A program made the translations under genes and the position numbers. Under the pieces are notes generated by a model. That model was not told where the DNA came from. It saw only the letters and a list, made by a program, of their open reading frames with translations, and ran no database searches. 16,379 nt of DNA from Christensenella sp. UBA3770 (GTDB lineage Bacteria > Bacillota > Clostridia > Christensenellales > CAG-1252): positions 1 to 16,379 of the forward strand of contig DFFS01000040.1 of assembly GCA_002371075.1 (NCBI GenBank), given 5' to 3'. Below, piece after piece: positions 1,344 through 16,379 of the stretch. The stretch's first letter is position 1, and each line of letters opens with the position of its first letter.

Positions 1344-1356
1344 TTGGAGGTGTGAT

Positions 1357-1722
1357 ATGAAAAAGATCGTTTCCGACCTTTGCGAAGACGACGTTATCCA
1401 CGTGGGCGTGGTTGAAAAAGTGCGTGCCGCCATCCCCGACGAGGACGTTCTCGTTGACGTGGCGGAGCTTTTTAAGGTGTTTGGCGACAGCACGCGCACC
1501 CGTATTCTTTCGGCGCTTTTCGTGTCGGAGCTTTGCGTTTGCGACATCGCCAGTTTGTTAAATATGACAAAATCCGCCGTTTCCCATCAGCTTCGCATCT
1601 TGCGTCAAACCAAGATCGTAAAAAACCGCAAGCAGGGGAAGGAAGTGTATTATTCGCTTGATGACGAGCATATCTCGCGTATTTATAAAATGGCTCTTGA
1701 ACATTTATCGGAGGAAAAATAG
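1357..1722 (+). CDS. cadC: ArsR/SmtB-family metalloregulatory repressor (CadC-like; Cd/Pb/Zn-sensing type)
   Basis: The RBS GGAGG at 1346-1350 lies 6 nt before the ATG at 1357. The upstream TTG at 1318 (track start) lies inside the operator and has no RBS. The protein has the HTH 'KSAVSHQLRILRQTKIV', the alpha3 metal motif 'ELCVCDIA' (CVC), and an N-terminal Cys in 'DLCEDD', as in alpha3N-site sensors. The stop TAG at 1720-1722 abuts the next ATG. Confidence 0.85.
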   Translation: MKKIVSDLCEDDVIHVGVVEKVRAAIPDEDVLVDVAELFKVFGDSTRTRILSALFVSELCVCDIASLLNMTKSAVSHQLRILRQTKIVKNRKQGKEVYYSLDDEHISRIYKMALEHLSEEK

Positions 1723-1950
1723 ATGAAAAAGGTTTATGAATTAACAGATCTGTGCTGCGCCGCTTGCGCCGCCGAGATCGAGCGTGACGTGAAAAAGATA
1801 GAGGGCGTTGCTTTTTGCAGCGTAAACTTCATTATGCAAAAGATGACCGTCGACTACAAAGACGAGGCGGACGTTCCCTCCGTTTACAAGGCGCTTGTCA
1901 AAGCGGTGCGCCGCGTGGAAGCCGATTGCGAGGTAATCGAGGTAAAGTGA
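1723..1950 (+). CDS. Stand-alone heavy-metal-associated (HMA) domain protein, homologous to the CadA N-terminal metal-binding domain
   Basis: The 75-aa product contains 'LCCAACAAEIERDVKKIEGV', a CxxC metal-binding loop in a ferredoxin-like HMA context. This resembles the CANC motif of CadA N-termini. The ATG directly follows the cadC stop. Confidence 0.8.
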   Translation: MKKVYELTDLCCAACAAEIERDVKKIEGVAFCSVNFIMQKMTVDYKDEADVPSVYKALVKAVRRVEADCEVIEVK

Positions 1951-1951
1951 C

Positions 1952-3835
1952 GTGAAACGCGACAAAAAGCTGTTGATCCGCATCATCGTGGCGTTTGCGG
2001 TGTTTGCCGCCGCCCTGATCCTGTTCAAATTGACGCCGCTACGCAGTTTCGGCGCCGTTGCGGAAGGGTGGAACCTAAGCGATTTCCGTTTCTATTTGTA
2101 CGTTTTGCCGTTTTTGATCGCCTATTTGATCGTCGGATACGACGTCATATACAAAGCGGGCAGAAACCTTGTTTCCGGCAGGCTTCTTGACGAAAACTTT
2201 TTGATGGTGGTGGCGACCTTTGGCGCCGTGGCGCTTTTGGACCTGCCCGAAGCGTGCGGCGTGATGCTGTTTTATCAGATCGGCGAGTTGTTTCAGCGCT
2301 ATGCCGTCGGCAAATCGCGCCGTTCCATTGCCGCGCTGATGAACATTCGTCCCGACGTGGCGCGCGTTTTGCGTGACGGCGAAGAGGTTTTTCTTTCCCC
2401 TGAGGAAGTTGCGGTTGGCGACGTGCTTGTTTTGCGCGCCGGAGAGCGCGTTCCCGTGGACGCCGTCCTTATGGATGGAGCAGGGAGCTTTGACGTGTCT
2501 TCCCTGACGGGTGAGAGCTTGCCTCGTGATGTCGCAGCGGGGGACGAGGTGCTCAGCGGCTCCATAAACCTCGGCGGAGAGATCAAACTGCGCGCGGTAA
2601 AACCCTATGGGGAATCCACCGTGCAAAAGATCCTTGATCTTGTGGAAAACGCCGCCGCCAAAAAGGCGCAGGCGGAGAACTTTATCACAAAATTCGCGCG
2701 CTATTATACGCCCGTCGTCGTTGTCGCGGCGCTCTTGATCGGGCTTGTCCCGCCCCTCTTTTTGGGAAATTGGGGCGGGTGGATCAAAAAGGCGCTGACC
2801 TTCCTTGTGGTCTCCTGTCCTTGCGCGCTTGTCATCTCGGTGCCGCTCTCCTTCTTCGGTGGGATCGGCGGCGCGTCCAAAAAGGGCATTCTTGTCAAAG
2901 GGGGCGCGGCGCTTGAGCGCTTGGCAAAAGCGAACGTCTTTTTGTTTGATAAAACGGGGACCATCACCGAGGGCAAATTTTCCGTCGTGGAGGTGTTTCC
3001 GTCCGAGCGTGCTTCGGAGGTGCTGACGGCGGCAGCCATTGCCGAAAGCGCGTCCAATCACCCGATCGCACGGTCCGTCGTTGCGTTTGCTCCGGCGGTG
3101 GATCACGCGGGTTATACGATTCGGGAAATCGTCGGACGCGGGGTCAAAGCCGTCAAAGAGGGTGACGAGATCCTTGTCGGCAACGCGGCGCTCCTTTCGG
3201 AGGAAGGCGTCGATTTTGAACCTTGTAAGCGGGGCGGCACGACCCTTTACGTGGCGAGAAACGGCGCGTTTATCGGGTGGTTGACGGTTTCCGACACGCC
3301 CAAAGAAAACGCCGCAGAGGTCGTTGCGGCGCTGAAAAAAGAGGGTTGTATGACCGTTATGCTGACGGGCGATCACAGGGGCGCGGCAAAAGAGGTTGCC
3401 GAACGGGTGGGCGTGGATGCTTACGTTGCGGAATTGTTGCCGCAAGATAAGGCGGCGTATATGGAAAAGATCCTTAGGGAGCAGGCGGGAAAGACCGTTT
3501 GCTTTGTCGGCGACGGCATCAACGACGCTCCCGTCCTTGCCATGGCGGACGTGGGCGTTTCTATGGGCGGCATCGGCAGCGACGCTGCGATCGAGGCTTC
3601 CGACGTGGTGTTGATGCGGGATGACCTTGCCTCCATAAAAGAGGGCAGAGGCATCGCCAAAAAGACGATGCGCATCGTGCGCGAAAACATTGCCGTCGCG
3701 CTTGGCGTCAAGGTGGGGGTTCTCCTTTTGACGGCGGTTGGGCTGATGGGGGCTTTTGCCATGTGGCTTGCGGTGTTTGCGGACGTCGGCGTGGCGATGC
3801 TTGCGATCCTAAACGCGATGAGAACGCTTCGCTGA
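1952..3835 (+). CDS. cadA: P1B-type heavy-metal (Cd2+/Zn2+/Pb2+) translocating ATPase lacking an N-terminal HMA domain
   Basis: The TM6 motif is 'SCPCALVIS' (CPC). The phosphorylation site is 'FDKTGTIT' and the HP motif is 'SNHPIA'. The protein also has 'MLTGDH', the hinge 'VGDGINDAP', and 8 predicted TM helices. A GTG start at 1952 is preceded by GAGGTAA, 6 nt upstream. Confidence 0.9.
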   Translation: MKRDKKLLIRIIVAFAVFAAALILFKLTPLRSFGAVAEGWNLSDFRFYLYVLPFLIAYLIVGYDVIYKAGRNLVSGRLLDENFLMVVATFGAVALLDLPEACGVMLFYQIGELFQRYAVGKSRRSIAALMNIRPDVARVLRDGEEVFLSPEEVAVGDVLVLRAGERVPVDAVLMDGAGSFDVSSLTGESLPRDVAAGDEVLSGSINLGGEIKLRAVKPYGESTVQKILDLVENAAAKKAQAENFITKFARYYTPVVVVAALLIGLVPPLFLGNWGGWIKKALTFLVVSCPCALVISVPLSFFGGIGGASKKGILVKGGAALERLAKANVFLFDKTGTITEGKFSVVEVFPSERASEVLTAAAIAESASNHPIARSVVAFAPAVDHAGYTIREIVGRGVKAVKEGDEILVGNAALLSEEGVDFEPCKRGGTTLYVARNGAFIGWLTVSDTPKENAAEVVAALKKEGCMTVMLTGDHRGAAKEVAERVGVDAYVAELLPQDKAAYMEKILREQAGKTVCFVGDGINDAPVLAMADVGVSMGGIGSDAAIEASDVVLMRDDLASIKEGRGIAKKTMRIVRENIAVALGVKVGVLLLTAVGLMGAFAMWLAVFADVGVAMLAILNAMRTLR

Positions 3836-3838
3836 AAA

Positions 3839-3862
3839 AACCGCCGTTCGGGCGGTTTTGTT
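3839..3862. terminator. Probable bidirectional rho-independent terminator between the convergent cadA and lipoprotein genes
   Basis: The stem aaccgcc (3839-3845) pairs with ggcggtt (3851-3857) and is followed by TTTGTTG. On the opposite strand it is preceded by an A-run, so it is usable in both directions. Confidence 0.55.
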
Positions 3863-3899
3863 GTAAAAGTAGATTATTCCACTTGTTTTATAAAAATCT

Positions 3900-5615
3900 T
3901 TATTCTTCGTCTTTGGGTAGGATCAAGCCCTCAAGCTCGATGCCGATCACGTCGATGGTCATGCGGACCTTTTCCGTATCTCCCTCTTTCGTGTAAGTAT
4001 AGCGGATATACGATTCGCCTTTTCCGACGGCGTTGTTGACGTAGATCGCCGTATAGGTCTTATCGCCCGCCGTGACGGTCTCCAGCGTGTAGGTCCCCAC
4101 GCATTCAATGCCGATCACGTCGTCAAATGCGTCGGGGTCGTCAACGATCAGTTGTCCCGTTTGGGCATATCGCGCGAAGATGGCTTGCAGGTGCGGGTTG
4201 TCGTAATCCAACCCGATGATCCTGATCCCATAGTATTCCTCAATGGCTTTGAGCACGCCGGCAAGGTCGGTCTCTTCCACGCCCGGGGCAATGTCGGAGA
4301 AGTAGTAGGACGCAAGCCCGAAAGCAAATTCCGAATTCAGATTAAAACCGCTTTTTTTGACCGTATCTTTCAAGATGCCGGTCACCAGTTCCAACAGCGG
4401 AACGGTCAGCTTGTACGTTCCGTCTTTTTCAAACGTGATGCTCGCTTGTTTTTTGTCGATCGCACCGGTGTACTCATCTCCGAATACGGCAAAGTACGAA
4501 ACGTCAAAACGCTTTGTGACGTCAAAGGTCCTGCCCGATCTGACCGCCTTATAAACGGTGGGAAGGACGCCGTTTGTCCCGTCAAAGTAAGCTTTGCTTA
4601 CTTCGCCAAAGGTTGCGGCGCGCATGATGGCTTTTTTGATGCTTTCTTTGTTTTCAATGTCGCCGTACAGGCGGTTTAACTGGCTGACCTTTTGCTTTTT
4701 GTATTGATACAGCGCGTTGGGAGCGGCAAGCCCGTGCGACGCAAGTTTGTCTTGCAACAGTTCCGCAAGGATGGCGTGGCCTTCCGAGGAGGGGTGCACG
4801 CCGTCTGAGCAAAACAGGCGTTGCCAACGATCGTTGTCTTTTTCGTAGATGCTTTCAAACGCCGAGTACACGTCGATCAGTTCAAAGGGCTTGACGGTGT
4901 TTCCGTCTTCGTCAACGTAGGTATGCTCTTCCGCGTAGTCTATGAGGGTTTGGTTGATCGTGCGGATCAACTTGTCCATAACCGCGTGATATTTTTGGGG
5001 CCCGATACCCTTTGAGGCAAGCACGCTGCGTGCATAAGAGGGAACGAGCGGGCTGTCTTCTCCGGCGGGGTTATACAGCGTTTGCACAAAGATCAGGGCG
5101 TTTGGATTGAGACGCTTGAGGGTCGCAAAGGTGTTTTCAAAGTTTGCTTTCGCCGTCTCCTGACGGGGGGTGATGCGATCGTAAACGTCGTTTGAAAGGT
5201 CGATCATCAGCTGATTGTGGCTGGAGTTCAAAAAGTCGTTGCCGATGTTGGAGATGTGAATGATGTCGGCGGTGGAAATATAGGTGCGCACGAGGTTGAT
5301 ACCGTCGTCCTCTCGCTCGACAAAATGCATCAGGTCTTCCGTCGTATAGGCGGTCACGGCGCGATTGTGAAACGAAAAGTCGTTGATCGTGCCGACAATG
5401 CCGTAGTAGCCGTAGTTTTCGCGCTCCGTCAACGGGCAGGGACCGGCAAGCGCTTCGCCGATGGAGTCGCCGAGGAAAAGGATCTCCGTTTTTTTCTCTG
5501 TCGTAACGGCAGCTGTCTCTTGCGTTTCTTCGCGCTTTTGCACGCAGGCAAAAAGCGCCGTGAACGTCACGACAAGCACAAGCAATATGGCGGTAAGCAA
5601 AAATATCCTTTTCAT
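3900..5615 (-). CDS. Secreted lipoprotein with an N-terminal SGNH/GDSL-family hydrolase (lipase/esterase) domain and a ~250-aa C-terminal domain of unknown function
   Basis: A lipoprotein signal 'MKRIFLLTAILLVLVVTFTALFAC' is present, with lipobox L-F-A-C. The SGNH block I is 'ILFLGDSIGE' and block V is 'CSDGVHPSSEGH', of the DxxH type. The start was chosen at 5615, because the upstream ATG at 5648 lies inside the -10 hexamer of the promoter. Confidence 0.75.
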   Translation of the reverse strand: MKRIFLLTAILLVLVVTFTALFACVQKREETQETAAVTTEKKTEILFLGDSIGEALAGPCPLTERENYGYYGIVGTINDFSFHNRAVTAYTTEDLMHFVEREDDGINLVRTYISTADIIHISNIGNDFLNSSHNQLMIDLSNDVYDRITPRQETAKANFENTFATLKRLNPNALIFVQTLYNPAGEDSPLVPSYARSVLASKGIGPQKYHAVMDKLIRTINQTLIDYAEEHTYVDEDGNTVKPFELIDVYSAFESIYEKDNDRWQRLFCSDGVHPSSEGHAILAELLQDKLASHGLAAPNALYQYKKQKVSQLNRLYGDIENKESIKKAIMRAATFGEVSKAYFDGTNGVLPTVYKAVRSGRTFDVTKRFDVSYFAVFGDEYTGAIDKKQASITFEKDGTYKLTVPLLELVTGILKDTVKKSGFNLNSEFAFGLASYYFSDIAPGVEETDLAGVLKAIEEYYGIRIIGLDYDNPHLQAIFARYAQTGQLIVDDPDAFDDVIGIECVGTYTLETVTAGDKTYTAIYVNNAVGKGESYIRYTYTKEGDTEKVRMTIDVIGIELEGLILPKDEE

Positions 5616-5646
5616 TGTTCTCTCGTCAAATATCTTTGACAACAGC

Positions 5647-5675
5647 ATTATAAAGCATAACGCCTTTTATTGCAA
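5647..5675 (-). promoter_or_regulatory. Sigma-A promoter for the lipoprotein gene (minus strand)
   Basis: Read on the minus strand, the promoter is TTGCAA (5670-5675), a 17-nt spacer, and a perfect TATAAT (5647-5652). It sits ~25 nt upstream of the ATG at 5615. Confidence 0.55.
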
Positions 5676-5864
5676 GCGGCGCAAGACGGTTGCCCGTTTT
5701 CTCCGATCGGCTCCGCCGTTTTTCTTAGAAAAACCCATCGGTATCGAATGGTGAAAAATCGCGAAGAAAGGACAGTTTTTTTTGATGTGAAAAATTATTA
5801 TTTATATGTAATTTTTGCCAAAATCTTTTTAAATATATAATTTATCGCAATTTGTAAACATTTA

Positions 5865-5893
5865 TTGACAAAATTTAACAATTAAGTTAAAAT
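5865..5893 (+). promoter_or_regulatory. Sigma-A promoter for the seven-gene operon, within an AT-rich intergenic region
   Basis: A consensus TTGACA at 5865-5870 is followed by a 17-nt spacer and TAAAAT at 5888-5893, which extends to TAAAATATAT. It lies ~60 nt upstream of the ATG at 5953. The region 5760-5900 is ~25% GC, against ~57% for the window. Confidence 0.5.
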
Positions 5894-5952
5894 ATATATT
5901 AAGACTACAGTTTTAGTACGTCGAAATTCAAAAGAGCGGGGATGCTTGCCTA

Positions 5953-8649
5953 ATGAGCCAAAACGCAGCGGATCACATCAGTTTTTCCATCATAAACGAC
6001 AAGACGGTCGGCGCTCTCACGATCCACGTTACAAGTGTTCCCGATTATAAGGTTTTCGATACCGAAGACGACGTTGCCGCCGCCGGCGCCATCAAGCAGG
6101 TTTTTACCGCCATCATCAACGAGTTTTCACATTTTGCGTCGCAATCCTCCGTTTCTGCGGAGCTGATGTTGTCGTGCAAATCCGCCGAGAATCAGTTGTT
6201 CCGTTCCTTTGTGGATATCCACGTCGTTTTGCGCGCCGTGGACGTTGATTACGCCGCGTGTCTCAACAACCTGATCCATTGCGGTACGTTGTTTGTGGAG
6301 ACGCTTGGCAACTCCAAAATCGTTTGTGAATATTGCGATTTCAAAGAGTACGCGCAGATCGTTTCCGATTTGAACATGGACGAGGTTTTGACCATTCGTC
6401 GCCCCGATGAATACATCGGTTTCCAAAACGCCTTTTTCCCGTTTTGTTACAACTACGACGCCGTGGAACCCAACGATAAGGACATCGACGCCATCATCAA
6501 CGCGATGATCGCAGAGAAGGATTGTGCCGTGGTCTTATCCATCATTCCCACTTCCTTTACCTATGCGGAGCAAAGCTTCCTTTCCGTCAATTACAATTCG
6601 TTAAACAGGCTTTGCACCGGCATCATGATGCCGCGCATGGGCATGTACAAGGAGGCACGCGCCGAGATCCCGATGCGTACCTACAAAAAGTATTCCGCTT
6701 TTTGCGCCGAGCCCGTTTGTTTGTTTAACATGCAGGTGTGCGGCGATCGCTTGGGGGCAAGAAACATCGCGTCCAAATTCCTGTCCGTTTTGACGGATGA
6801 AAAGGCGCAGTTCTCCACCCGCTTTGAAATTTGCGAAACCAATCATTTCGCCGATCTGTTAAGAAGCATTTACGCTTCGCCCTGGGCGGTTTCGGACGCG
6901 ATCATGCAGTACAACCGCGTCGCATCGCCGTATCCCCAAATGCAAAACGCCTGTTGGCGCTTGGCGTATCTGTATTTGCCCGCCGAGATCGCGCAGGTCT
7001 TCCGCGTTCCGATCGGCACCAAAAAGATCACGGACGGCATCGATATCCATTACATCAACAAGCGTAACAAAAAGTTTGGTCAAGACGTCATCAATTCCGC
7101 GGCGTTCACGATCGGTAAATTGCAAAACGTGATCGGCGATCAGTCGTATATCGGCGTCGGCAAAAAGGATCTGACCAAGCATATGCTCGTCGTGGGTACG
7201 CCGGGTTCCGGTAAATCCACCTTTTTGGTGGGGCTCATGGACCGGTTGTGGAAGCAGGGCATCCCCTTTTTGGTCATTGAACCCGCCAAGACGGAGTATC
7301 GCGGGCTGATCGATTCCATTCCCGATCTGCAGGTGTTCTCTCCCGGCAACAACGAGGTCTCGCCTTACGTGATCAATCCGTTCGTTCCCCCCAAGGGCGT
7401 TTCGGTGGAAAAACACAAATCCATCGTCAAAGCGGCGTTTTCCGCCGCGTTTGAGATGTGGACGCCGCTTGATCAACTTTTTGACGAGACGCTCAACATT
7501 TGTTACAGCGAGCAGGGCTGGCTGGACAGCGACGTCGTGGAAGAGGGAGCGGATTGCTTCTCGCTGATCGATTTTGTAAAGACCTATCGCGAGGTGGTTG
7601 CTTCCAAGGGTTACAGCGGGGAGTATAAAAAGCAGATCGAAGCCGCCGGCGTACTGCGCCTCAACGGTTTGTTGGAGCAAAACATCAACATCTTCGACAC
7701 GCGTTATTCCGTGCCCATCGAGGACATCTTAAAGGCGCCCACCGTCATTGAGCTTTCCAACGTAAAGGACATCAAGCAAAAGTCCTTTATCATCGCTTAT
7801 CTTTTGAACAACATTTACGCTTACGTCGAGGCAAACAACAGCAACGACGGCAATTTGAAAAACGTGATCCTTTTGGAGGAAGCGCACGTCCTTTTGGACG
7901 CCGGCTCCGTGGTGGGGGACGAGGGTCCCAACGCAAACGCCGCCGCCGTCAAGTTGCTTACCGATATGCTTGCGGAGATCCGCTCGCGCGGCGTGGGCAT
8001 CGTCGTGGCGGATCAGTCGCCAAAAAAGGTCACCTCGCCCGTGATCTCCAACACCAACGTCAAAGTGATGTTCCGTTTGGTGGAAAAGGCGGATAAGGAG
8101 ATCGTAAAGAACTCCACCGGCATGACCGACTTGCAGGAGGAGAGGCTCTCGCGCTTGTCCACCGGCGAGGCGCTTTTGTATTTTGACAAATTGGACGAAG
8201 TGGAAGAGATCCGTATGGACGACTACCGCTTGTCGGCGGGCATCGCCACCGATCTCAGAGACGCCGACGTCAAGGCGCGCATCACCTATTGGCAAAAGCA
8301 CGCCTATCTTTTGAAGCCGTTCCCCGATTGCGATTGCATCGGCTCCTGCAGCGGCGGTTGCGACCCGTTGAAGAGAAACAGGGCGCGCATCATTGCGGAT
8401 AGGATCTTCCGCAAAAATTACCCCAAAAACTTCCACGATTTTGAAACGTTTAAAGCCTTCTATCGGCAGATGAACCTTGCCGTTAAGGAGGAGACCCTTG
8501 CCGTGTTTAAGGGCGCTGTGGACCCCGCCGACGTGTTGGATTGCGCAAAGGTGCATTTCCTCAGAAAGGTAAACTATTTCACCAACATCGAGGTCAACTT
8601 CACACTCAGAAAAAACACGTACGCACGTGCGAAGAAACCCTTGCAATAA
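5953..8649 (+). CDS. HerA/FtsK-clade (DUF87-like) P-loop ATPase, with a ~340-aa uncharacterised N-terminal domain and a Cys-rich C-terminal tail
   Basis: Walker A is 'MLVVGTPGSGKST' (K421). 'VIEPAKTEY' is HerA 'DPxGEY'-like. Walker B is 'VILLEEAHVLL', the EEAH type, at 639-645. 'GVGIVVADQSPKKV...NVKVMFRL..KAD' corresponds to the HerA 'TQRP' arginine-finger region. The pre-ATPase segment 'IGTKKITDGIDIH...IGKLQNVIGDQSYIGVGKKDL' resembles the HerA N-terminal barrel. The C-terminus carries 'CDCIGSCSGGCD'. Confidence 0.8.
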   Translation: MSQNAADHISFSIINDKTVGALTIHVTSVPDYKVFDTEDDVAAAGAIKQVFTAIINEFSHFASQSSVSAELMLSCKSAENQLFRSFVDIHVVLRAVDVDYAACLNNLIHCGTLFVETLGNSKIVCEYCDFKEYAQIVSDLNMDEVLTIRRPDEYIGFQNAFFPFCYNYDAVEPNDKDIDAIINAMIAEKDCAVVLSIIPTSFTYAEQSFLSVNYNSLNRLCTGIMMPRMGMYKEARAEIPMRTYKKYSAFCAEPVCLFNMQVCGDRLGARNIASKFLSVLTDEKAQFSTRFEICETNHFADLLRSIYASPWAVSDAIMQYNRVASPYPQMQNACWRLAYLYLPAEIAQVFRVPIGTKKITDGIDIHYINKRNKKFGQDVINSAAFTIGKLQNVIGDQSYIGVGKKDLTKHMLVVGTPGSGKSTFLVGLMDRLWKQGIPFLVIEPAKTEYRGLIDSIPDLQVFSPGNNEVSPYVINPFVPPKGVSVEKHKSIVKAAFSAAFEMWTPLDQLFDETLNICYSEQGWLDSDVVEEGADCFSLIDFVKTYREVVASKGYSGEYKKQIEAAGVLRLNGLLEQNINIFDTRYSVPIEDILKAPTVIELSNVKDIKQKSFIIAYLLNNIYAYVEANNSNDGNLKNVILLEEAHVLLDAGSVVGDEGPNANAAAVKLLTDMLAEIRSRGVGIVVADQSPKKVTSPVISNTNVKVMFRLVEKADKEIVKNSTGMTDLQEERLSRLSTGEALLYFDKLDEVEEIRMDDYRLSAGIATDLRDADVKARITYWQKHAYLLKPFPDCDCIGSCSGGCDPLKRNRARIIADRIFRKNYPKNFHDFETFKAFYRQMNLAVKEETLAVFKGAVDPADVLDCAKVHFLRKVNYFTNIEVNFTLRKNTYARAKKPLQ

Positions 8650-8681
8650 AGGGAGAATAAAAAACCAAGGAGGAAAGTGCA

Positions 8682-10349
8682 ATGGCAGATGATTTCAATG
8701 ATTCGTTTGACGGCAGTTCGGTAGAGGAGTTTTCTTCGGATTCCTATACGGATTTCTCAAGTGAAGAGACCTACGAACAATCGTCGGACGCATTCATCAG
8801 CGATTATGACGACACGATTTCCGCCACGGACTATGAGACAACCGAGGATGACAGTGGGTTGGAGGAAAACGACTATGATGACTCTTATAACGATTACGTG
8901 TCGGAAGAGGAGCAAGAGGAAGAGTATATCGTAGAGAATGACGATTTTGAAGAGACCGTAACGGAGCCTTCGGCTGACCCCGAAGACGCTTTTATTTCCG
9001 ATCTCGATGAAGTGATCCAAGAGGAGGACGAAGGTTTATCCGATGAGGAACAAAGCGAACTCTACTTGGAGGAGGATGAGGAAGAACCGCAAGAGGTTGA
9101 ACTGCAAGAAGAAGAGAGCCAAGAAGAGTATTTGGCGGACGAGGACGACGAGCAGATCGCGGAGTCGGAAGAAACCGATCCCGATGCTTCCGAGTTTGTT
9201 GCCGACACGGATAATATCCAGCCGCAATACGGCACCCTCGCAGAGTATTTGAACGGGCACAACTACGGGCAGGAGGATTATGACGTTTATTCACAAGATC
9301 CCGAGTGGAGAAGATTGTATTCAATTGAGTACCCCGATGCGGAATTGCCCCCGCTTACGTCGGAAAGTATTGACAACATTCTTGCGCCGTACGAAGGGAA
9401 AACGTATGATTCCTTGGGTGAGTACTTAAGTGATCACAACTTCGGACAGGCAGATTATGAGATCTATTCCCAAGACCCCGAATGGCGCAGATTGTATTAT
9501 GAGCAATATCCCGATGCCACGCTTCCGCCCCTCAGTCAGGAAAGGATCGATGACATTCTCGCCCCGTACGAGGGAAAAACGTACGATACGGTGGAGGACT
9601 ACCTCAACGACCACAACTTCGGGCAAGGAGATTACGATATCTATTCAAGGGATCCCGAATGGCAACGCCTTACAGGAAACGATGCTCCGAGGATTTTAGA
9701 TGATTTCGAACAAGGGTATACGGCAGAGCATCCCGATTTTAAAGATTATTATCAATCGGGGCGCTTTTATGATCAAGGTGCTAATGAATATGGTTTTAAC
9801 GGAACGTGCGGACCAACTTCTCAAGCCAACGCAGTTAATTATTTGTTAGGAACCAATGAATACACGGAGAACAAGGTCTTAAAAATTGCCGTTGAAAACA
9901 ATTTATGTACCTTAACCGGGCCTTCCGGTGATCAAGGAGGAACAACAACGCAACAGTTTATGGACCTGTATGATCGGGTCAATGAGCAGACCGGTGGTCA
10001 GCTTAATGTTGAGTTGCACGATTTTGACAAGGCACTAAGCATTGAAGAAATGGCTTCGAAAATCGAAGAGGGAAGCGTGTTGAACGTAGCTGTTGACAGT
10101 AGCGCCTTGTGGGATAAAGAACGTGAATTCAGTCCATTCGGATACAATGAAAGTTTTTATACCGATCATTGGATAACGGTGACCGGAGTCGATAGGGATG
10201 AATCAGGTGAAATCCAAGGTTTTAAAATTATTGATTCCGGCGGTGGAGTCGACTATGTTGACGTAGATAAATATGATAGAATGTGTTTTGGCACCGATCA
10301 GCACAGAGTCAACGATCCAACGATGATCGTTGTTTCCAAAAAAGGTTAA
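8682..10349 (+). CDS. Tripartite protein: polyacidic low-complexity N-terminus, three 59-aa tandem repeats, and a C-terminal papain-like cysteine peptidase domain (C39-like)
   Basis: The RBS AAGGAGGAAAG lies before the ATG at 8682. Residues 1-180 are >40% D/E. The repeat unit is 'Y(G/D)xLxEYLxxHN(Y/F)GQxDY(D/E)(V/I)YSQDPEWRRLY...YPDAxLPPL(T/S)xExIDxILAPYEGKT', present three times. The C-terminal domain has 'NGTCGPTSQANAVNYLLG' (Cys376), then 'TDHWITVTGVD' (His496), then 'FKIIDSGGG'. This is the Cys...His...Asp order and spacing of papain-fold peptidases. Confidence 0.75.
   Translation: MADDFNDSFDGSSVEEFSSDSYTDFSSEETYEQSSDAFISDYDDTISATDYETTEDDSGLEENDYDDSYNDYVSEEEQEEEYIVENDDFEETVTEPSADPEDAFISDLDEVIQEEDEGLSDEEQSELYLEEDEEEPQEVELQEEESQEEYLADEDDEQIAESEETDPDASEFVADTDNIQPQYGTLAEYLNGHNYGQEDYDVYSQDPEWRRLYSIEYPDAELPPLTSESIDNILAPYEGKTYDSLGEYLSDHNFGQADYEIYSQDPEWRRLYYEQYPDATLPPLSQERIDDILAPYEGKTYDTVEDYLNDHNFGQGDYDIYSRDPEWQRLTGNDAPRILDDFEQGYTAEHPDFKDYYQSGRFYDQGANEYGFNGTCGPTSQANAVNYLLGTNEYTENKVLKIAVENNLCTLTGPSGDQGGTTTQQFMDLYDRVNEQTGGQLNVELHDFDKALSIEEMASKIEEGSVLNVAVDSSALWDKEREFSPFGYNESFYTDHWITVTGVDRDESGEIQGFKIIDSGGGVDYVDVDKYDRMCFGTDQHRVNDPTMIVVSKKG
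9228..9716 (+). repeat. In-frame tandem repeat with a 177-nt period, ~2.75 copies (9228-9404, 9405-9581, 9582-~9716), inside the peptidase gene
   Basis: The unit boundaries fall exactly 177 nt apart (9228, 9405, 9582). Protein identity between copies is ~65-70%, but the nucleotide sequences differ at many synonymous positions. This points to an old, selected repeat rather than a recent duplication. Confidence 0.8.
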
Positions 10350-10361
10350 GGAGGATTAAAA

Positions 10362-10835
10362 ATGAAAGCATTATCAGCTGTAATGAAGGATTTGGATTTT
10401 AGTTTGTTTGGAGGAGCAAAGGTCCCCCATGGGTTATCTCATCCGATTGTCAGATATGAAAACGGGGAGTTCTATTTTGCTGTTTTCGCTTTTGGATTGT
10501 CTGCCGAAAAGGTCAGAACCAATCAGCTTGGGAAACCTTCTAAATGGGCTTTGGCGGATTTGGAATCAGGGGAAATTAAGTTCACTTTTTCTTGTATGGA
10601 AAAGGATTTTTCACCTGCTTCGGAAGATATCCTTTATGATATGAGCACATTTGCGGGAGATCGTCCGACTCAAAAAGATGTGGAAAAGGTTTACGAACAA
10701 TTTGAGGCGATCAGAAGCACATACGTAAGCAATAAAGATGCTGTTTTGCCGCTAATAAAAGAATATATGGAAGCTTTATCCAAAGTCGTGCCTACAGCAT
10801 ATTTTAAATTTTATAAAGATCTTTCGAACATTTAA
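10362..10835 (+). CDS. Hypothetical 157-aa cytoplasmic protein encoded immediately downstream of the peptidase gene; immunity or inhibitor candidate
   Basis: The RBS GGAGGA lies 8 nt before the ATG. The protein has no TM segment and no recognisable motifs. It shares the low-GC composition (~40-45%) of the upstream gene. Confidence 0.7.
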   Translation: MKALSAVMKDLDFSLFGGAKVPHGLSHPIVRYENGEFYFAVFAFGLSAEKVRTNQLGKPSKWALADLESGEIKFTFSCMEKDFSPASEDILYDMSTFAGDRPTQKDVEKVYEQFEAIRSTYVSNKDAVLPLIKEYMEALSKVVPTAYFKFYKDLSNI

Positions 10836-10855
10836 CGAAAAGGGAGGATAGAAAA

Positions 10856-12079
10856 ATGCCAATTGTAGAAACCATTAAATATGAAGGACCGCAAGACGCC
10901 CTTGTCTGGAGAAATTCAGGCAAGGAATACACCATCGGAAAAGATGGCAGCATTAACATGGGATCGCAGCTGATCGTCGACGAGTTTTACGAGGCGATCC
11001 TGTTTGCCAACGGCAACGCGCTTGACTTGTTTAAGCCCGGGCGCCACACCTTGATCACGCAAAATATTCCGATGCTCAAGGAACAGTTTGAAAGGCTGAC
11101 CACCTCTACGCCGTTCCCCGTCAAAGTGTACTTTATCAACAAAGTGCATCAGTTGGAACTCAAGTGGGGAACGCAGGGACCCATCATGGTGGACGATCCC
11201 GTTTACAGCATTTTCCTGCACGTCGGTTGCTGCGGAACGATGGCAATCAGGATCTCCGATTCGAGAAAGTTCCTTTTGAAGTTTGTCGGAAACAAAGAAT
11301 CCTACACAAACAACGATCTCGTCGGTAATTTGAGAGGCATCATTTCCTCTAAGGTCAAGGAGTATATCTCCAAGATCATGATCGAGGGCAGGGTCAGCTT
11401 CTTTGTAATGAATGCAAAGATCGCCGACATAGCAGAGCTGGTGAAACAACAGTTGCAACCCATTTTCGATTCGTACGGCTTGGAGATCCAGTTTTTTAAC
11501 ATCGAGACCATCGACGTTCCCAAGGAAGATTATCAAATGTTGCAAGACGCCAAGAATAACAGGGCGTATTACGACATCAACGCCGAAAAGTGGGAGAAAG
11601 AAAAGATGTTTGAAGTTCTCAGAACCGCTGCCGGCAACGAGGGCATGGCAGGCAACATGATGGGTGCCGGCATGGGACTCGGCATGGGCATCGGCTTCGG
11701 CGCTCCGATGGGACAGGCGATGGGCAACATCACCAATTCCGTCTTCGGATCCGCGCAAATGGGCGGCGGCGCAGGCGCATCGCCTCGTCAAAATGAGGCG
11801 CCCAAAAACATATACAATCAAAACAGCGGTTTGGGTATGAACGTCAATGACTTTTTGAATAAAAACATGGCAAACGCCGCTCCCGCCGCCCCCGCAGGCG
11901 CAGCAGGGCAACCCGCCCCCGCGTTCTGCCCGCAGTGCGGCGCGCCGTTGATGCCCGGCGCAAGGTTCTGCTCAACCTGCGGCGCAAAAATCGAACAGAA
12001 AAACGTGTGTCCCGCTTGCGGCGCGGAAGTTCCGCCCAACGCAATGTTCTGCGGCATGTGCGGACAAAAGCTTAAGTAA
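10856..12079 (+). CDS. SPFH/band-7 (stomatin/prohibitin-like) domain protein with a Gly/Met-rich linker and a C-terminal double zinc ribbon (COG4260/YdjI-like)
   Basis: The RBS AAGGGAGGA is present. The N-terminal ~250 aa has an alternating beta/alpha SPFH-like pattern ('LVWRNSGKEYTIGKDGSI..GSQLIVDEFYEAILFANGNALDLFKPGRHTL'), consistent with the YdjI-type SPFH family. A low-complexity linker 'GNEGMAGNMMGAGMGLGMGIGFGAPMGQAMGN' follows. Two zinc-ribbon motifs follow, 'FCPQCGAPLMPGARFCSTCGA' and 'VCPACGAEVPPNAMFCGMCGQ'. Confidence 0.8.
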   Translation: MPIVETIKYEGPQDALVWRNSGKEYTIGKDGSINMGSQLIVDEFYEAILFANGNALDLFKPGRHTLITQNIPMLKEQFERLTTSTPFPVKVYFINKVHQLELKWGTQGPIMVDDPVYSIFLHVGCCGTMAIRISDSRKFLLKFVGNKESYTNNDLVGNLRGIISSKVKEYISKIMIEGRVSFFVMNAKIADIAELVKQQLQPIFDSYGLEIQFFNIETIDVPKEDYQMLQDAKNNRAYYDINAEKWEKEKMFEVLRTAAGNEGMAGNMMGAGMGLGMGIGFGAPMGQAMGNITNSVFGSAQMGGGAGASPRQNEAPKNIYNQNSGLGMNVNDFLNKNMANAAPAAPAGAAGQPAPAFCPQCGAPLMPGARFCSTCGAKIEQKNVCPACGAEVPPNAMFCGMCGQKLK

Positions 12080-12094
12080 AAGGAGGGTTTGACA

Positions 12095-12835
12095 ATGAAT
12101 GAAAATAAACAAATCGGTAAAAAAGCGTTCTCAGCCGGATTGATCATCTTTACCATCATTATCGCGGTTTTGAATTTGATCATCTTTACGATCTTTAAGC
12201 CCCTGAAACTGGAAACCAATCACTTAAAATTGATCTTCTGGTTCTCATACGGCTTTATGATGTTGGCGTACGTCTTGCAGGTGGTTTCCATCTTCACCGG
12301 CAGATATGAAAACGGGGTGGAATCCGTCTTCTTCAGCATTCCGATGTACAAGGTGGCCATTTTCTACTTTGCCGTTGCCGCTGTGCTCTCCTTGCTCTTT
12401 ATGATACTGGTCAGCTTTGGCGTCGCGGTGCCGTTTATGCTGATGTTCATTTTGGAGATCATCGTCTTGGCGGTGTTTGCCATCGCGTTCGTGCTTAGTT
12501 ACACGCACAAAAACGTCGTCCTTGACATTGACAAGAACATCAAAGCAAACGTCTTTAAGATCCGCACGCTCGTGACCGACGTGGAGGTGCTTGCCGAGGC
12601 GGTGAACGACAACGCCGCGCTCAAAGCAAAGCTCGCCCGTCTGGCGGAGGATATCCGTTATTCCGATCCGATGACCAACGATTCCGTCAAGGATCTTGAC
12701 CTTCAAATGAGGGATCTTGTCGCCGAGCTCGAGCTTGTCGTCAGCGAAAAGGACTACGCGCAAGCGGAGACCCTTATCAGACAAGCGACGTTGACGATGT
12801 CAAAGAGGAACAAGCGTTTGGCTGACGGAAAATAG
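12095..12835 (+). CDS. Integral membrane protein (~4 TM helices) with a C-terminal cytoplasmic coiled-coil region
   Basis: The RBS AAGGAGGG at 12080-12087 lies 7 nt before the ATG at 12095. The track's TTG at 12089 is less likely. The hydrophobic segments are 'GLIIFTIIIAVLNLIIFTIF', 'LIFWFSYGFMMLAYVLQVVSIF', 'VAIFYFAVAAVLSLLFMILVSFGV' and 'FMLMFILEIIVLAVFAIAFVL'. The tail 'EVLAEAVNDNAALKAKLARLAEDIRY...LQMRDLVAELELVV' is helical with heptad periodicity. Confidence 0.7.
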   Translation: MNENKQIGKKAFSAGLIIFTIIIAVLNLIIFTIFKPLKLETNHLKLIFWFSYGFMMLAYVLQVVSIFTGRYENGVESVFFSIPMYKVAIFYFAVAAVLSLLFMILVSFGVAVPFMLMFILEIIVLAVFAIAFVLSYTHKNVVLDIDKNIKANVFKIRTLVTDVEVLAEAVNDNAALKAKLARLAEDIRYSDPMTNDSVKDLDLQMRDLVAELELVVSEKDYAQAETLIRQATLTMSKRNKRLADGK

Positions 12836-12848
12836 GAGTTAGACAACT

Positions 12849-14822
12849 ATGGCAGAAAGATTTACCAGCCAAAGATGTCAGGACTGCCAGGGCGGTCTTG
12901 AATACAACAAGGCGGGGAAATATTGGGAGTGCCCGTATTGCGGCAAGATCTACGAGAGGGAACTACGTTTCAACAAGGTCCAAATCGACGGTCTTGCCGG
13001 CATCAACGACCTGGTGCGTTCCACCCTTTCAAAGGTGGTCAAGCTGGATTTTTCGGGTGCGGAAAGGGACTATTTGGAGTGTGAAAAGATCAACCACTTA
13101 AGCGTCGGCACCGCGATCGCGGGTATGGCGCTAAGCCTCTTCAAGGCGTTTACCACAAAGGACAGACAGGCGGAGATCGCCAAGCTAAATAGCTTGGCGC
13201 AAAAGTTTTCAAAGGACTTTCCCACGATAGAAGACGAGGAGGAGATCCTGTACGAATATATTGCGTCGCAAGACATCTACGCCATGCTCGTCGTGCTTTA
13301 CAGTACGATCAAACAGACAAAGCGCTTGGAGCAAATGTATTTGTTGCTTGATTGCAAAGAAGTGTACGAGCAAAGCATCTCCAAATTTCTCCTAAACGTG
13401 CTTTTGAAGGATGGGAAGGTGGAGGACGCGGACGTCATCATCGGCAATCTGTCCGAGGCAAACAGCCGCTTTGGCATCATGTCGGTGCTCAAGGACTATC
13501 CTGGCAACGACAAAAAGGTCCAACATATCCAAATCCTTTTGAAAAGGTACAAATCCGAGTTCAGCCTTGCTAAAACCTTCGAAGATTATTTTGACGCCAC
13601 CGAGGATCCTTCCGACGTGGTGATCGGCATCTTCCTCGCGGCAATCGAAAAAGGGGTCCAATTTAACGTGGACAGCACGTTGGAAATGGTGCTTGAGAAC
13701 TGCACGGACGAGGACGCCGCAAACAGAGTTTTCGGCGCGCTTTCGCACGTGCGCTTTTCCGATCAGGCGGCGGAGACGATCGTCAACTGGTGCCTTTTGG
13801 AAGCGGAGAGCGCGGAAATCTGCGCGATCGGCATAAAATCGTTGTTTGAAAGCAACACGATCTTTGAGCTCACCTACGATATGTGCGTTCTGCTGTTCGA
13901 TTCCGATCAAGACCCCGATCTGATCATCGGAAAGTTTAAGGTGCTTTTAAGCACGTTGCGCGCTCCGAGTAGGTGCTTGGACAGGTTGATCTCATACGTT
14001 CTCCTTGAAACGGACGGCGAAACGAGAGGAGAGCTGTTTGACGAACTGTTCTCTCGCGTAAACAGCGTGTCGCTCAGCGTTCTTAACGATTACGTTTTGA
14101 AAGTGTACGACGATGGGGAAGAGAAACGGGACATCTTGCAAAAGGTCCTGGAAAAGTCCAAGACCTCTTTCGACTACTCGCTTTTGTCAAATTATCTGAG
14201 GACGGATATCGATGAGTCGGAGACCCGCGAAGGGGTGATCGAAACTTTGCTTGAAGCAAAGTTGATCCCCGATTGCGAGTCGTATACATATTATCTTGTC
14301 AACGAAGACGAGTTACATTCCGACGAAATGTTGGATCTTTTGGATCAAAAGAACATTCGTCCCTCGTCTTCCGCCTTGGATCAGTATTTCCGAAACGTTG
14401 ACCCCGACGAGTTTAACCCCAAGATCGCTTACCTTGCCACAAAAGCCTCCTATCGCTTGAGCGCGGAGGCGTATGCGCGCTATATCCTTGAAATCAGCGA
14501 ACCGCAAAACCGCAAAGCGCACAGCGCGGTCGTGTATTTGGAACAAACGGACGTTTCGGCGCTGCGTAACGCGCAGTTTTCCGCAACGGTCGCAGGCAAA
14601 AAGGTCACCGGCAATCTTGCGGAGATATATATTTTCGTCACCGGCGACGAAGCTTTCGTCGTGCAGGAAGTTCTCGGCTGCTTGAAAAAGCAAAAAATCA
14701 GGATCGACGAGACCATCGAAGTGGAGGGGGAGAAAAAGAGCGTGAAGATGAAGAAATTCATCGAGGAAAATCCCACCGCCGTCCCCGCTTCCATCAAGAG
14801 CGCCGTCGTTCAATTTTTATAA
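12849..14822 (+). CDS. 657-aa protein with an N-terminal Cys4 zinc ribbon followed by a large acidic alpha-helical domain of unknown function
   Basis: The RBS TAGGAG overlaps the upstream stop. 'CQDCQGGLEYNKAGKYWECPYCGKIY' has the form CxxC-x15-CxxC. The rest is predicted to be helical and D/E-rich, with no enzymatic motifs. Confidence 0.75.
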   Translation: MAERFTSQRCQDCQGGLEYNKAGKYWECPYCGKIYERELRFNKVQIDGLAGINDLVRSTLSKVVKLDFSGAERDYLECEKINHLSVGTAIAGMALSLFKAFTTKDRQAEIAKLNSLAQKFSKDFPTIEDEEEILYEYIASQDIYAMLVVLYSTIKQTKRLEQMYLLLDCKEVYEQSISKFLLNVLLKDGKVEDADVIIGNLSEANSRFGIMSVLKDYPGNDKKVQHIQILLKRYKSEFSLAKTFEDYFDATEDPSDVVIGIFLAAIEKGVQFNVDSTLEMVLENCTDEDAANRVFGALSHVRFSDQAAETIVNWCLLEAESAEICAIGIKSLFESNTIFELTYDMCVLLFDSDQDPDLIIGKFKVLLSTLRAPSRCLDRLISYVLLETDGETRGELFDELFSRVNSVSLSVLNDYVLKVYDDGEEKRDILQKVLEKSKTSFDYSLLSNYLRTDIDESETREGVIETLLEAKLIPDCESYTYYLVNEDELHSDEMLDLLDQKNIRPSSSALDQYFRNVDPDEFNPKIAYLATKASYRLSAEAYARYILEISEPQNRKAHSAVVYLEQTDVSALRNAQFSATVAGKKVTGNLAEIYIFVTGDEAFVVQEVLGCLKKQKIRIDETIEVEGEKKSVKMKKFIEENPTAVPASIKSAVVQFL

Positions 14823-14845
14823 AAATCTAAACAAAGGAGGGAGGT

Positions 14846-16379
14846 ATGACTCAGGAAGAATATGATCGTTATATGGCCGAGCAAGAACGGTTGATCAATG
14901 AGTACAACGCGTTGGTCGCAAGAAAAAGCCGGTTGATCGATGAGTACAACATGCTTGTCGAAGAACTGACTTATGCGATCGAAGCGACCGTCAGCGTGAT
15001 CAATCAGACGAACAAGGTCAAAAACCACATCGTTCCGAGGCTTACGGAGTCGGAAGCGGCGGTAACGGTAGTCAACGGCATGGTCAAAGACGTCCAGCGC
15101 GAAATAGAGCAACTGGCGGAAAAGTATTTCTTGATGAAAAACATTTCCACGGCGTCCAAGAAGATGATGCAGCTCAACAACGAGTATCAACAAAAATTCG
15201 GGCTGTACAACATGCTGCGCAGGGTCACGCTCGGTTACGTTGTCGGTGTTGACAGCAACATCATCAGCAACGAGTCGTTGCGCAAAACCGTGGAGAAAAA
15301 CTACCTGCAAAACGCCGATTACTGGATCTCGCACTGCATTATGGCAACGATGCTGTGGGTCAGCGACGAAAAGGAGGCGGCGTACCGCGCGCTCAACAAA
15401 GCGCTCAGCATCGACCGCAAAAAGGCATCGCTGTTTTTCTTACTTTTGAACTTGCGTTTCGGCCGCAACGAGGAGGCGGGAAGGTGGTTTGAATTTTACA
15501 TTCAGGACATCGACGTCAACAACGTCGGCGACGAGATCATCATCTTGTTCCAAGCTTATCTTTACAACGTTTGCGGCAACGAACCGGAGATCAAGGGACG
15601 TATCCGTGAAAAGTTGGACGGTTTGCTTGCGGAAATTCGCCAAAACACGCGCGATTATGACGAGGACATCAAGGTGTCGCTGTTAAAACACATTTCCGCT
15701 TACGTGCACAAGACCAGAGAAGAGTTTGAGAAGATGGAGGATTTCTGCAAGGATTACAAGACGATGATCCAAGCGTTGGAAAGCGCCGAAAAGAACGGTG
15801 ATTTCGCCAAATTCTACAACGAGCTCTACGTCAGCGACGACAATGCGCCCAAGGATCTTTTGACCCGTATAGAAAACGTGTTGTACGACCTTATCAACAC
15901 CTATGACGAGGTGGAAAAGATCATCATCCGCGATATGAATTACAACGAGATGATCCTCAAGGCAAACGGCGACATTGCGGCGGCGCAAAAGATGTATCAA
16001 GCCAAATACAACGAGGGCAAGCCCCAGACGCTGGGCGAACTGATGATCAGGCTTTCGCTTCCGACGGTGGGCGACGACGTGGATATCCGCGTCAAAAAGT
16101 TTGCCATTTCCTTCTTGGTGGAGAGCATCAAAAAAGCCTTTGAAGCTTATCAACAGGAATATCGCAAAACCGCAGTTGACGTCCACGAGGTGGTCATCGA
16201 TTCCTTTACCATCAAGGTGGACGAGAAAGAGCCGCGCAAAGCCGCCGAAGACCTTAAGCAAACGTACAAGAAAAACAAAAATAAGCTTGTCAACAAGGAT
16301 AGGGGCGTAAAAGCCTTTACGGGGCTCAGTGTCTTCTTCTGCATCGCGTTTGCCATCATGGTCGCGCTGGTGTGCGTGC
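14846..16379 (+). CDS. Large coiled-coil protein (>511 aa, 3'-truncated by window end) with a hydrophobic TM segment at the window edge
   Basis: A strong RBS AAAGGAGGGAGG lies 6 nt before the ATG at 14846. My manual translation of 14846-16379 found no in-frame stop. It begins 'MTQEEYDRYMAEQERLINEYNALVARKSRLIDEYNMLVEEL' and ends 'GLSVFFCIAFAIMVALVCV'. It is absent from the supplied ORF track because no stop codon falls in the window. The two minus-strand track ORFs here are antisense artefacts. Confidence 0.7.
   Translation, partial: MTQEEYDRYMAEQERLINEYNALVARKSRLIDEYNMLVEELTYAIEATVSVINQTNKVKNHIVPRLTESEAAVTVVNGMVKDVQREIEQLAEKYFLMKNISTASKKMMQLNNEYQQKFGLYNMLRRVTLGYVVGVDSNIISNESLRKTVEKNYLQNADYWISHCIMATMLWVSDEKEAAYRALNKALSIDRKKASLFFLLLNLRFGRNEEAGRWFEFYIQDIDVNNVGDEIIILFQAYLYNVCGNEPEIKGRIREKLDGLLAEIRQNTRDYDEDIKVSLLKHISAYVHKTREEFEKMEDFCKDYKTMIQALESAEKNGDFAKFYNELYVSDDNAPKDLLTRIENVLYDLINTYDEVEKIIIRDMNYNEMILKANGDIAAAQKMYQAKYNEGKPQTLGELMIRLSLPTVGDDVDIRVKKFAISFLVESIKKAFEAYQQEYRKTAVDVHEVVIDSFTIKVDEKEPRKAAEDLKQTYKKNKNKLVNKDRGVKAFTGLSVFFCIAFAIMVALVCV

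Follow-up and report, generated by a model that had tools for sequence, protein, structure and literature searches.

The window analysed here is a 16,379-nt stretch of DNA from Christensenella sp. UBA3770 (NCBI GenBank assembly GCA_002371075.1, contig DFFS01000040.1). It holds an operon in which the gene for a HerA/FtsK-like ATPase is followed by genes for a 555-amino-acid (aa) protein, a 157-aa protein and an SPFH protein (Table 1). We conclude with high confidence that positions 9661-10837 form a cassette of two parts that is exchanged by recombination as a unit and fills the variable slot of a polymorphic-effector locus. The C-terminal domain of the 555-aa protein would be the toxin and the 157-aa protein its partner. 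The conclusion draws on a break in composition, a break in homology to a sister lineage that carries an alternative cassette, and the co-variation of C-terminal domains and small downstream genes across related loci.

Breaks in composition and homology

A sharp, highly significant compositional discontinuity covers the C-terminal enzymatic domain of the 555-aa protein and the 157-aa gene. The GC content of the whole window is 0.509, while that of the cassette is 0.409, compared with 0.513 upstream and 0.499 downstream of it. In in-frame sliding windows, GC at the first two codon positions (GC1+2) stays at ~0.42 across the whole operon, whereas GC at the third position (GC3) falls from ~0.55 to 0.35 at ~9640 and is back at 0.72 by 10916. 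Since GC1+2 is flat, the drop is synonymous. An unbiased two-breakpoint change-point search over the 2922 codons of the operon placed the low-GC3 segment at 9626-10918, with a GC3 of 0.37 inside and 0.68 outside (log-likelihood ratio 73.5 against a permutation maximum of 13.1, n=200; chi-square p = 3e-31). The initial annotation had described a sharp drop from 8682 onwards, spanning the whole peptidase gene, in an operon of 58-62% GC. The drop is real over the C-terminal domain and the 157-aa gene, but it begins only at about 9640-9660, with the low-GC stretch running from 9661 to 10837, and the operon around it measures about 50-52%. A 60-nt line at 7201 that had been read as 62% counts to 60%, and the gene it lies in averages 52%.

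Could protein composition alone lower the GC content? With the protein sequence fixed and host codon usage applied, the peptidase domain is expected to have a GC3 of 0.700 and has 0.389 (z = -10.8), and the 157-aa gene is expected to have 0.697 and has 0.350 (z = -10.0). Amino-acid composition, which the initial annotation had already thought an unlikely cause, is thus removed as an explanation, because the codon-matched expectation fails by 10 standard deviations for both and GC1+2 is flat. The same data bear on the broader idea that nothing was transferred and that the low GC reflects a local mutational or selective bias on resident genes, through low expression, relaxed codon selection or acidic composition. 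Such a bias would agree with the fact that the GC3 of toxin and partner lies below that of the operon in several lineages (related loci carry L numbers, their proteins P numbers): it is 0.31/0.26 against 0.40-0.48 in L007 and 0.35/0.37 against 0.41-0.53 in L009, with 0.60/0.58 against 0.58-0.70 in L011. It would also agree with a mildly low GC3 in the N-terminal part of the 555-aa gene, outside the cassette. However, GC1+2 is unchanged, the amino-acid-matched expectation is missed by the same wide margin, and the compositional edges fall within about 80 nt of a total loss of homology, between flanks that are 94-99% identical. We regard a local bias as hardly tenable.

That loss of homology is seen in the closest lineage. 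L001 (ENA contig ERZ12302850 NODE_191) is identical to the window, and L003-L006, from four other assemblies, have the same synteny throughout (cysK, Rrf2, ArsR, HMA, P-type ATPase, GDSL and the whole operon). In BLASTN, window positions 1-9660 and 10838-16379 align with L003 at 91% identity overall, with 94-99% in the flanks beside the break, while window 9661-10837 and L003 10974-11967 share zero DNA similarity. The junctions, 9660/9661 and 10837/10838, are identical in L003-L006, and a misassembly is unlikely because these four assemblies are independent. On the left, the break comes immediately behind the DPEW/DPEY codons that belong to the third 59-aa repeat of the 555-aa protein; on the right, it comes 2 nt past the stop codon of the small gene, before a common GGAGG and the SPFH start. 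Compositional and homology edges agree within about 80 nt.

In L003 the place of the cassette is taken by 994 bp of GC 0.415, whose genes have a GC3 of 0.44/0.455, compared with 0.65-0.71 in the L003 operon. Over residues 1-357, P0002 of L003 (549 aa) shares 90% identity with the window protein; it then runs into an unrelated domain of the HExxH type (HELWH), with a 98-aa gene next downstream. The swapped effector/immunity-type cassette proposed in the initial annotation is therefore supported, both by this break and by the co-varying pairs described below; instead of the same two genes at the GC of their operon, the closest relatives carry another pair, and the alternative C-terminal domains and alternative small downstream genes that it predicted for orthologous operons were both found.

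The edges of the cassette are conserved coding motifs, and no flanking repeats or mobile-element ends were found at them. Positions 8682-9233 lie outside the swap because they are 94-99% identical to L003 at the nucleotide level. Two copies of the following repeat, D1, at 9243-9419 and 9420-9596, are 70% identical to each other, and the repeat region alone gave two weak matches in a word-indexed search. On the right, sequence identity between lineages of 29-52% GC is 77-83% over the initial 66 nt of the SPFH gene and 66-76% over the 300 nt that follow, and the first ~21-22 codons of the gene (10856-10918) have a GC3 of 0.33 against an expected 0.74. This conservation could mark a recombination anchor for cassette exchange or a constraint on translation initiation. 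A search for a promoter inside the cassette gave just one weak match, with 9 of 12 consensus positions, at 10249-10277.

C-terminal domains and their partners in the slot

Scanning metagenomes with an alignment of the ATPase found at least 528 relatives of this conserved multi-gene system, in gut and other metagenomes, of which 80 loci were taken; in a scan of a genome collection, the ATPase query found one locus, in a metagenome-assembled genome (MAG) of Bacilli, at 49% identity. In 66 loci, we surveyed the open reading frames (ORFs) that separate the ATPase gene from the core gene next to it. The slot is occupied in 65 of them, with 26 C-terminal clusters and 28 small-gene clusters, and is empty in L060, where the SPFH gene directly follows that of the ATPase. 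The recurrent C-terminal types each have their own type of small gene, with one exception. The peptidase type is followed by a gene of 133-163 aa in 15 of 15 loci, the HExxH type by one of 98-99 aa in 12 of 12, and the Gln_amidase, T04 and T05 types, in 4 of 4 loci each, by genes of 73-78, 66-70 and 66-67 aa, the last belonging to DUF7675. The exception is the TNT-like type T02, which in its six loci has no downstream gene of at least 45 aa apart from a 61-aa ORF in L035. Among the slot domains, ADPrib_exo_Tox (44 bits), Endonuclea_NS_2 (103 bits), Gln_amidase (40 bits) and HD (24.5 bits) score above their Pfam cut-offs, and TNT (25.9 bits) and SprT-like (24 bits) below them.

The 60 distinct slot proteins resemble each other at the other end. 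Most begin with M-x-[DE]-[DE]-[FMY]; in 41, the first 150 residues consist of at least 30% Asp and Glu with almost no Lys or Arg; and a single one has a segment resembling a transmembrane (TM) helix. In the 555-aa protein, 43% of the first 150 residues are Asp or Glu and 0% are Lys or Arg, and no signal peptide, TM segment or known secretion domain was detected in it. The length of the acidic region differs greatly between loci that have 99-100% identical ATPases and the same toxin domain (784 and 625 aa in L015/L058, 793 and 650 aa in L063/L066, 942 and 906 aa in L077/L079, 534 and 628 aa in L053/L087); judged from these sequences, the acidic linker appears to expand and contract quickly.

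Slots can also hold more than one pair. L007 has two acidic, repeat-bearing proteins in tandem (5937-9482), and in several termite-gut loci (L042, L023, L025) further toxin-like and small genes are stacked behind the first pair. A distant relative of the system in L058 (2318-5736) lies beside genes for a tyrosine integrase, a helix-turn-helix (HTH) protein and proteins of the TPR and YidD-domain types, and an integrase fragment or IS66 TnpB adjoins the system in L009 (1-353) and L011 (495-725). These neighbours suggest that the whole system sometimes resides on mobile islands.

The C-terminal domain of the window protein models as a papain-like, more precisely staphopain-like, protease fold. 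Its AlphaFold2 model (predicted local distance difference test 88, predicted template-modelling score 0.86) finds staphopains C and A as best matches in the PDB (E 7.7e-6, template-modelling score 0.65 on the target), followed by Lpg2622, IdeS/Mac-1 and cathepsins L and S. Gln365, Cys376, His496 and Asp518 are invariant in an alignment of 14 diverse homologs, with codons checked, which is consistent with a peptidase that has a Cys376/His496/Asp518 triad and a Gln as the oxyanion residue. By sequence, the isolated domain reaches 20.5 bits (E 7.4e-4) with Pfam Peptidase_C39_2 (PF13529), under the gathering threshold of 24 bits. The full-length protein had no Pfam match, NCBIfam and PADLOC gave nothing usable for it, and a PDB sequence search with a profile of the peptidase domain had no match.

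Most of the 331 homologs of the 555-aa protein keep the peptidase C-terminus (118 of 120 among the matches listed); one of them, P0075, comes from an Oscillospiraceae MAG. P0062 ends in Gln_amidase (PF15644) instead, P0058 of L011 has Endonuclea_NS_2 after the peptidase domain, and in forms of 728 and 770 aa a short conserved tail follows the peptidase. Since papain-like release peptidases are known from polymorphic toxins (PMC3482391), the domain could serve the acidic protein for self-processing or maturation, with the 157-aa protein as its chaperone or regulator, still in a horizontally replaced module; its standing as by far the commonest C-terminus, its place ahead of a bona fide endonuclease toxin domain in P0058 and the tails of the longer forms would all suit this role. 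In the window, however, the peptidase is terminal and has nothing left to release. The sister lineage has an unrelated domain exactly where ADP-ribosyltransferase (ART), deamidase and nuclease domains sit elsewhere, and a processing protease would not require a partner that co-varies with it and also occurs in fusions with other modules of the partner type. We consider a processing role quite improbable and a toxin tip the better reading.

A gene for the 157-aa protein or a relative of it comes after this peptidase domain at each locus that has the domain. For the 157-aa protein, Pfam, NCBIfam and PADLOC gave nothing usable, and a word-indexed search retrieved only the protein itself, whereas a full HMMER scan found relatives. 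The genes after the peptidase in L007, L009 and L011 encode proteins 43%, 32% and 30% identical to it, and the small genes after divergent peptidase variants match the profile of the family (hhalign probability 90%, E 1.5e-6, 134 columns). The pairing is kept in every peptidase locus, across gene orders and across 40-52% GC. Partners are also combined with each other. In L011, next to the two-domain toxin of peptidase and endonuclease comes a 388-aa fusion protein with a 157-aa module at its end; 77 of 136 near-full-length matches to the family, among the best 150 of 190 clusters, are fused to other sequence; and P0143 looks like a fusion of a 157-aa with a 98-aa family member, the 98-aa part being judged by eye. 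The predicted model of the 157-aa protein consists of a helix, a five-stranded sheet and a three-helix bundle. Foldseek matched it to no PDB chain, staphostatins included (best E 0.22), so that it is not staphostatin-like and corresponds to none of the solved immunity folds.

The operon and a possible mechanism

Table 1. Features of the window around the slot. GC3, GC content at third codon positions.
Feature	Position	Strand	GC	GC3	Remarks
Promoter-like site TTGACA-17-TAAAAT	5865-5893	+			11 of 12 consensus positions, best in 5500-12200; consensus match alone
ATPase gene	5953-8649	+	0.523	0.720	898-aa soluble HerA/FtsK-superfamily P-loop ATPase; conserved on the left of the slot
555-aa gene	8682-10349	+	0.462	0.495
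N-terminal part of the 555-aa effector	8682-9233	+			MADDF start, then polyacidic low-complexity region
Tandem 177-nt (59-aa) repeats	9243-9660	+			About 2.4 copies, each with a YSQDPEW motif; last motif is the left junction
Predicted papain-like (clan CA) cysteine peptidase domain	9660-10349	+			Residues 327-555
Swapped low-GC cassette	9661-10837	+	0.409		1177 bp; C-terminal peptidase domain and entire 157-aa gene
C-terminal part of the 555-aa gene	9699-10349	+	0.421	0.387
Invariant Gln365	9774-9776
Invariant Cys376	9807-9809
Invariant His496	10167-10169
Invariant Asp518	10233-10235
157-aa gene	10362-10835	+	0.384	0.348	Cytosolic partner; a candidate inhibitor of the peptidase domain or immunity protein against it
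Right conserved flank	10838-10921	+			Shine-Dalgarno GGAGG and first ~22 SPFH codons; L003 homology resumes
SPFH gene	10856-12079	+	0.519	0.674	407 aa; conserved on the right of the slot; Pfam Band_7_1 131.9 bits; C-terminal double zinc ribbon (DZR, Zn_Ribbon_1)
248-aa gene	12089-12835	+		0.703	Polytopic membrane protein, TM-like segments
657-aa gene	12849-14822	+		0.670	N-terminal zinc ribbon

The slot lies in an operon of at least 12 genes, and the SPFH gene adjoins it in loci that have this gene order. The ATPase reaches 39.8 bits with Pfam DUF87, the central HerA domain, has HerA 4d2i as its best solved relative (E 2.5e-8) and stays below the family cut-offs of the NCBIfam HerA/CedD-type models. 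It combines a single DUF87-type P-loop domain with a 380-aa N-terminal domain, has no FHA region and shows no convincing TM helix, with one isolated hydrophobic 19-mer at residue 180. The 248-aa and 657-aa genes are conserved in L003, L007, L008, L009 and L011. Beyond the end of the window, L001 (16165-21668) continues the operon with genes of 602, 542, 52 and 140 aa and a 502-aa Cdc48/VAT-like AAA ATPase (E 1e-46); the 602-aa and 542-aa proteins are paralogous coiled-coil proteins with C-terminal TM helices, and L003 shows an additional 575-aa paralog after the AAA ATPase. L009 and L011 keep the gene set but arrange it differently. For the components other than the ATPases (5953-14822 and L001 16165-21668), no explanatory Pfam family was found.

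Some observations on the operon and its surroundings stand apart from the slot. Near the C-terminus of the ATPase (8329-8361, residues 793-803), the cysteines C793, C799 and C803 in CDCIGSCSGGCD, together with C864, are invariant in 6 orthologs and may form a metal-binding site beyond any Pfam model. Between the window and L003, the ATPase proteins are 98.6% and the SPFH proteins 87.5% identical. Nucleotide identity to L003 falls to 78-87% at 11138-11838, in the SPFH gene, and at 13138-13800, in the 657-aa gene, with 94-99% in the neighbouring stretches, which gives the operon a mosaic look outside the toxin slot as well. The promoter-like site sits ahead of the operon in the AT-rich intergenic region that separates it from the divergent GDSL-lipase gene on the minus strand. 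This region (5551-6150) has the deepest GC dip of the window, 0.32-0.43, and is the stretch least conserved in L003 (72-76%). A second, milder compositional outlier is the ArsR-family gene at 1318-1722, ahead of the HMA/P-type ATPase genes, with a GC3 of 0.58 against an expected 0.70 (z = -3).

How might the slot work? The conserved N-terminal part of the 555-aa protein, with its MADDF start, polyacidic tract and YSQDPEW repeats, is probably a handle recognised by the machinery of the operon, meaning the HerA/FtsK-like ATPase, the SPFH-zinc-ribbon protein, the membrane proteins and the Cdc48-like AAA ATPase. Its C-terminal warhead would be replaceable, and in the window it would be a toxic papain-like cysteine peptidase. 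By analogy with immunity proteins and staphostatins, the 157-aa protein would most likely bind and neutralise this peptidase in the cytoplasm of the producer, as an immunity protein or inhibitor. The pair would be installed as a unit through homologous recombination, for which the final DPEW motif of the repeats on the left and the ribosome-binding site with the 5' end of the SPFH gene on the right would be the conserved anchors. Cassettes would circulate among lineages in this way, the high-GC3 host having received its own from an AT-richer pool too recently to equilibrate. The AT-rich synonymous sites may have been kept from such a lower-GC donor pool, because the system is also present in lineages of 29-42% GC, within a total span of 29-52%.

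Several points weigh against this account. The closest relatives of the window cassette are only about 63% (peptidase) and 44% (157-aa protein) identical, and no donor was found. No fold of an immunity protein or inhibitor can be recognised in the 157-aa model. The acidic and repeat part of the 555-aa gene (8682-9660), which is not swapped, has a mildly low GC3 of 0.56-0.585 against an expected 0.67-0.69 (z about -3), and the swap leaves this unexplained. In L011 the peptidase precedes an endonuclease domain, so that it could be a processing or release peptidase and not a warhead. Finally, we infer the toxicity of the peptidase, its neutralisation by the 157-aa protein, its export and the identity of the donor.

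What kind of machine, then, would such a payload serve? It is possible, though we propose it only tentatively, that gut Firmicutes (Clostridia and relatives) have an undescribed machine for protein delivery whose payload site is the slot, with a soluble HerA/FtsK pump, a Cdc48-like unfoldase, an SPFH-zinc-ribbon scaffold and coiled-coil membrane proteins. Effectors would be recognised through the MxDEF start and the polyanionic tract, possibly a nucleic-acid mimic, and would be exported, or packed into vesicles, to kill other bacteria. The 157-aa protein would then have a novel immunity fold directed at a novel family of papain-like toxins. The joint presence of a HerA-like and a Cdc48/VAT-like AAA ATPase fits an unfold-and-pump export, which is speculation. 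If true, gut Firmicutes would have in this delivery pathway a new way of antagonising other bacteria, and it would come with a catalogue of effector/partner pairs, including a new papain-like domain and a partner without known fold relative.

As the main alternative, the operon could serve an intracellular conflict or anti-phage system of the abortive-infection type, in which infection would prompt the HerA-like and AAA ATPases to free suicide effectors from the control of their cognate antitoxins, without export. The ATPase matches the PADLOC HerA and mad8 models (E 1e-19 to 1e-5, for PADLOC without curated cut-offs, with NCBIfam anti-phage HerA models far below theirs); distant relatives of the system have tyrosine integrases and HTH genes for neighbours, in the manner of mobile or defence islands; NADase-like, ART, HD and nuclease effectors occur in defence systems too; and neither a signal peptide nor a known secretion domain is detected. 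On the other hand, these generic HerA/mad8 models of PADLOC-DB 2.0 match the ATPase alone, leaving the other five operon proteins scanned unmatched. A domain-specific small gene downstream, mirrored by fused partners, is the signature of delivered polymorphic toxins (PMC3482391) and atypical of sensor-gated defence effectors, and the common N-terminal motif and membrane-associated partners fit export better. An intracellular system is therefore unlikely in our view, and it would alter only the biological role, leaving the swap, the low GC and the cassette conclusion as they are.

Comparison with known systems

Among secretion systems of Gram-positive bacteria, type VIIb with its LXG toxins comes closest, as it combines signal-peptide-less polymorphic toxins and downstream immunity genes with an ATPase of the FtsK/HerA superfamily, the FtsK/SpoIIIE-type EssC (PMC9436818, PMC10801868). 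In contrast, the ATPase of our operon has one P-loop domain and a 380-aa N-terminal domain with no TM or FHA region, and its partners are SPFH, zinc-ribbon and coiled-coil membrane proteins and a Cdc48-like AAA ATPase. No Pfam match to WXG100, LXG, EsaA, EssA, EssB or YukD was found in the operon proteins scanned, the 52-aa gene excluded, and we reject membership in this type, given that neither a WXG100/LXG substrate nor an EssC-type membrane ATPase nor EsaA/EssA/EssB was detected. The S8-PTS systems resemble the slot as Gram-positive, toxin/immunity-style variable loci beside a conserved accessory gene, recognised by comparative genomics, but their toxins have a signal peptide, a BetaH domain and an association with subtilases (PMC9424270). 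All three are absent here, and we likewise reject identity with this different system.

For the peptidase itself, the nearest solved structures are those of the staphopain/staphostatin pairs of Staphylococcus aureus (PDB 1cv8, 8oig, 1pxv, 1y4h). There, too, a papain-like protease has a small, cytoplasmic, protease-specific partner, which is encoded directly downstream and co-transcribed with it. Staphostatin protects the cytoplasm of the producer. The likeness is one of arrangement and fold, as sequence identity between staphopains and the window peptidase is just 11-14%, staphopains are Sec-secreted zymogens whereas the window peptidase is the C-terminal domain of a polyacidic protein, and the 157-aa model matches no staphostatin.

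The genes to the right of the slot (10856-14822) recall a different context. A Band_7_1-type SPFH protein, a small polytopic membrane protein and a zinc-ribbon protein also occur together as YdjG/YdjH/YdjI (SamGHI) of B. subtilis, with PspA (PMC8581546), a likeness of gene sets. In archaea, ESCRT-linked SPFH-zinc-ribbon proteins sit with Vps4/Cdc48-type AAA ATPases (PMC10936438). Unlike in these sets, no PspA/ESCRT-III protein was detected in our operon, and a toxin slot is unreported for them. We take the resemblance as a lead and not as a classification.

The slot itself is best compared with polymorphic toxin systems, of which CdiA-CT/CdiI and Rhs-CT/RhsI are the classic cases. Such systems are built from C-terminal toxin and downstream immunity cassettes (PMC3482391; Zhang, de Souza, Anantharaman, Iyer, Aravind 2012), and they share with our locus a conserved N-terminal part, a hypervariable C-terminal enzymatic domain and a co-varying small downstream gene. 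Their cassettes recombine at a short conserved motif, VENN in CdiA and PxxxxDPxGL in Rhs, whose counterpart here would be YSQDPEW. The repertoire of ART, Gln deamidase (Tox-PL1), Endonuclease_NS_2, HD, metallopeptidase-like and papain-like domains is common to both as well, and so are fused multi-partner proteins. What sets our locus apart is the conserved MxDEF start with its polyacidic tract, where no signal peptide, WXG/LXG, PAAR, RHS, TPS or MuF was detected, and a constant position, with the gene of a soluble HerA/FtsK-like ATPase on one side and that of an SPFH-zinc-ribbon protein on the other. That a toxin tip and its partner gene are swapped as a unit is known; for a toxin slot in this position, and for the conserved multi-gene system around it, we found no description in the full-text literature, the coverage of which was incomplete. 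Alternative C-termini, a co-varying small gene and cassette replacement give the locus, at the level of sequence, the defining features of a polymorphic toxin system. It is an unusually clean example of one: the two lineages differ by 1-6% around the slot and wholly inside it, and a scar in composition shows, to almost the nearest codon, where the recombination junctions lie.

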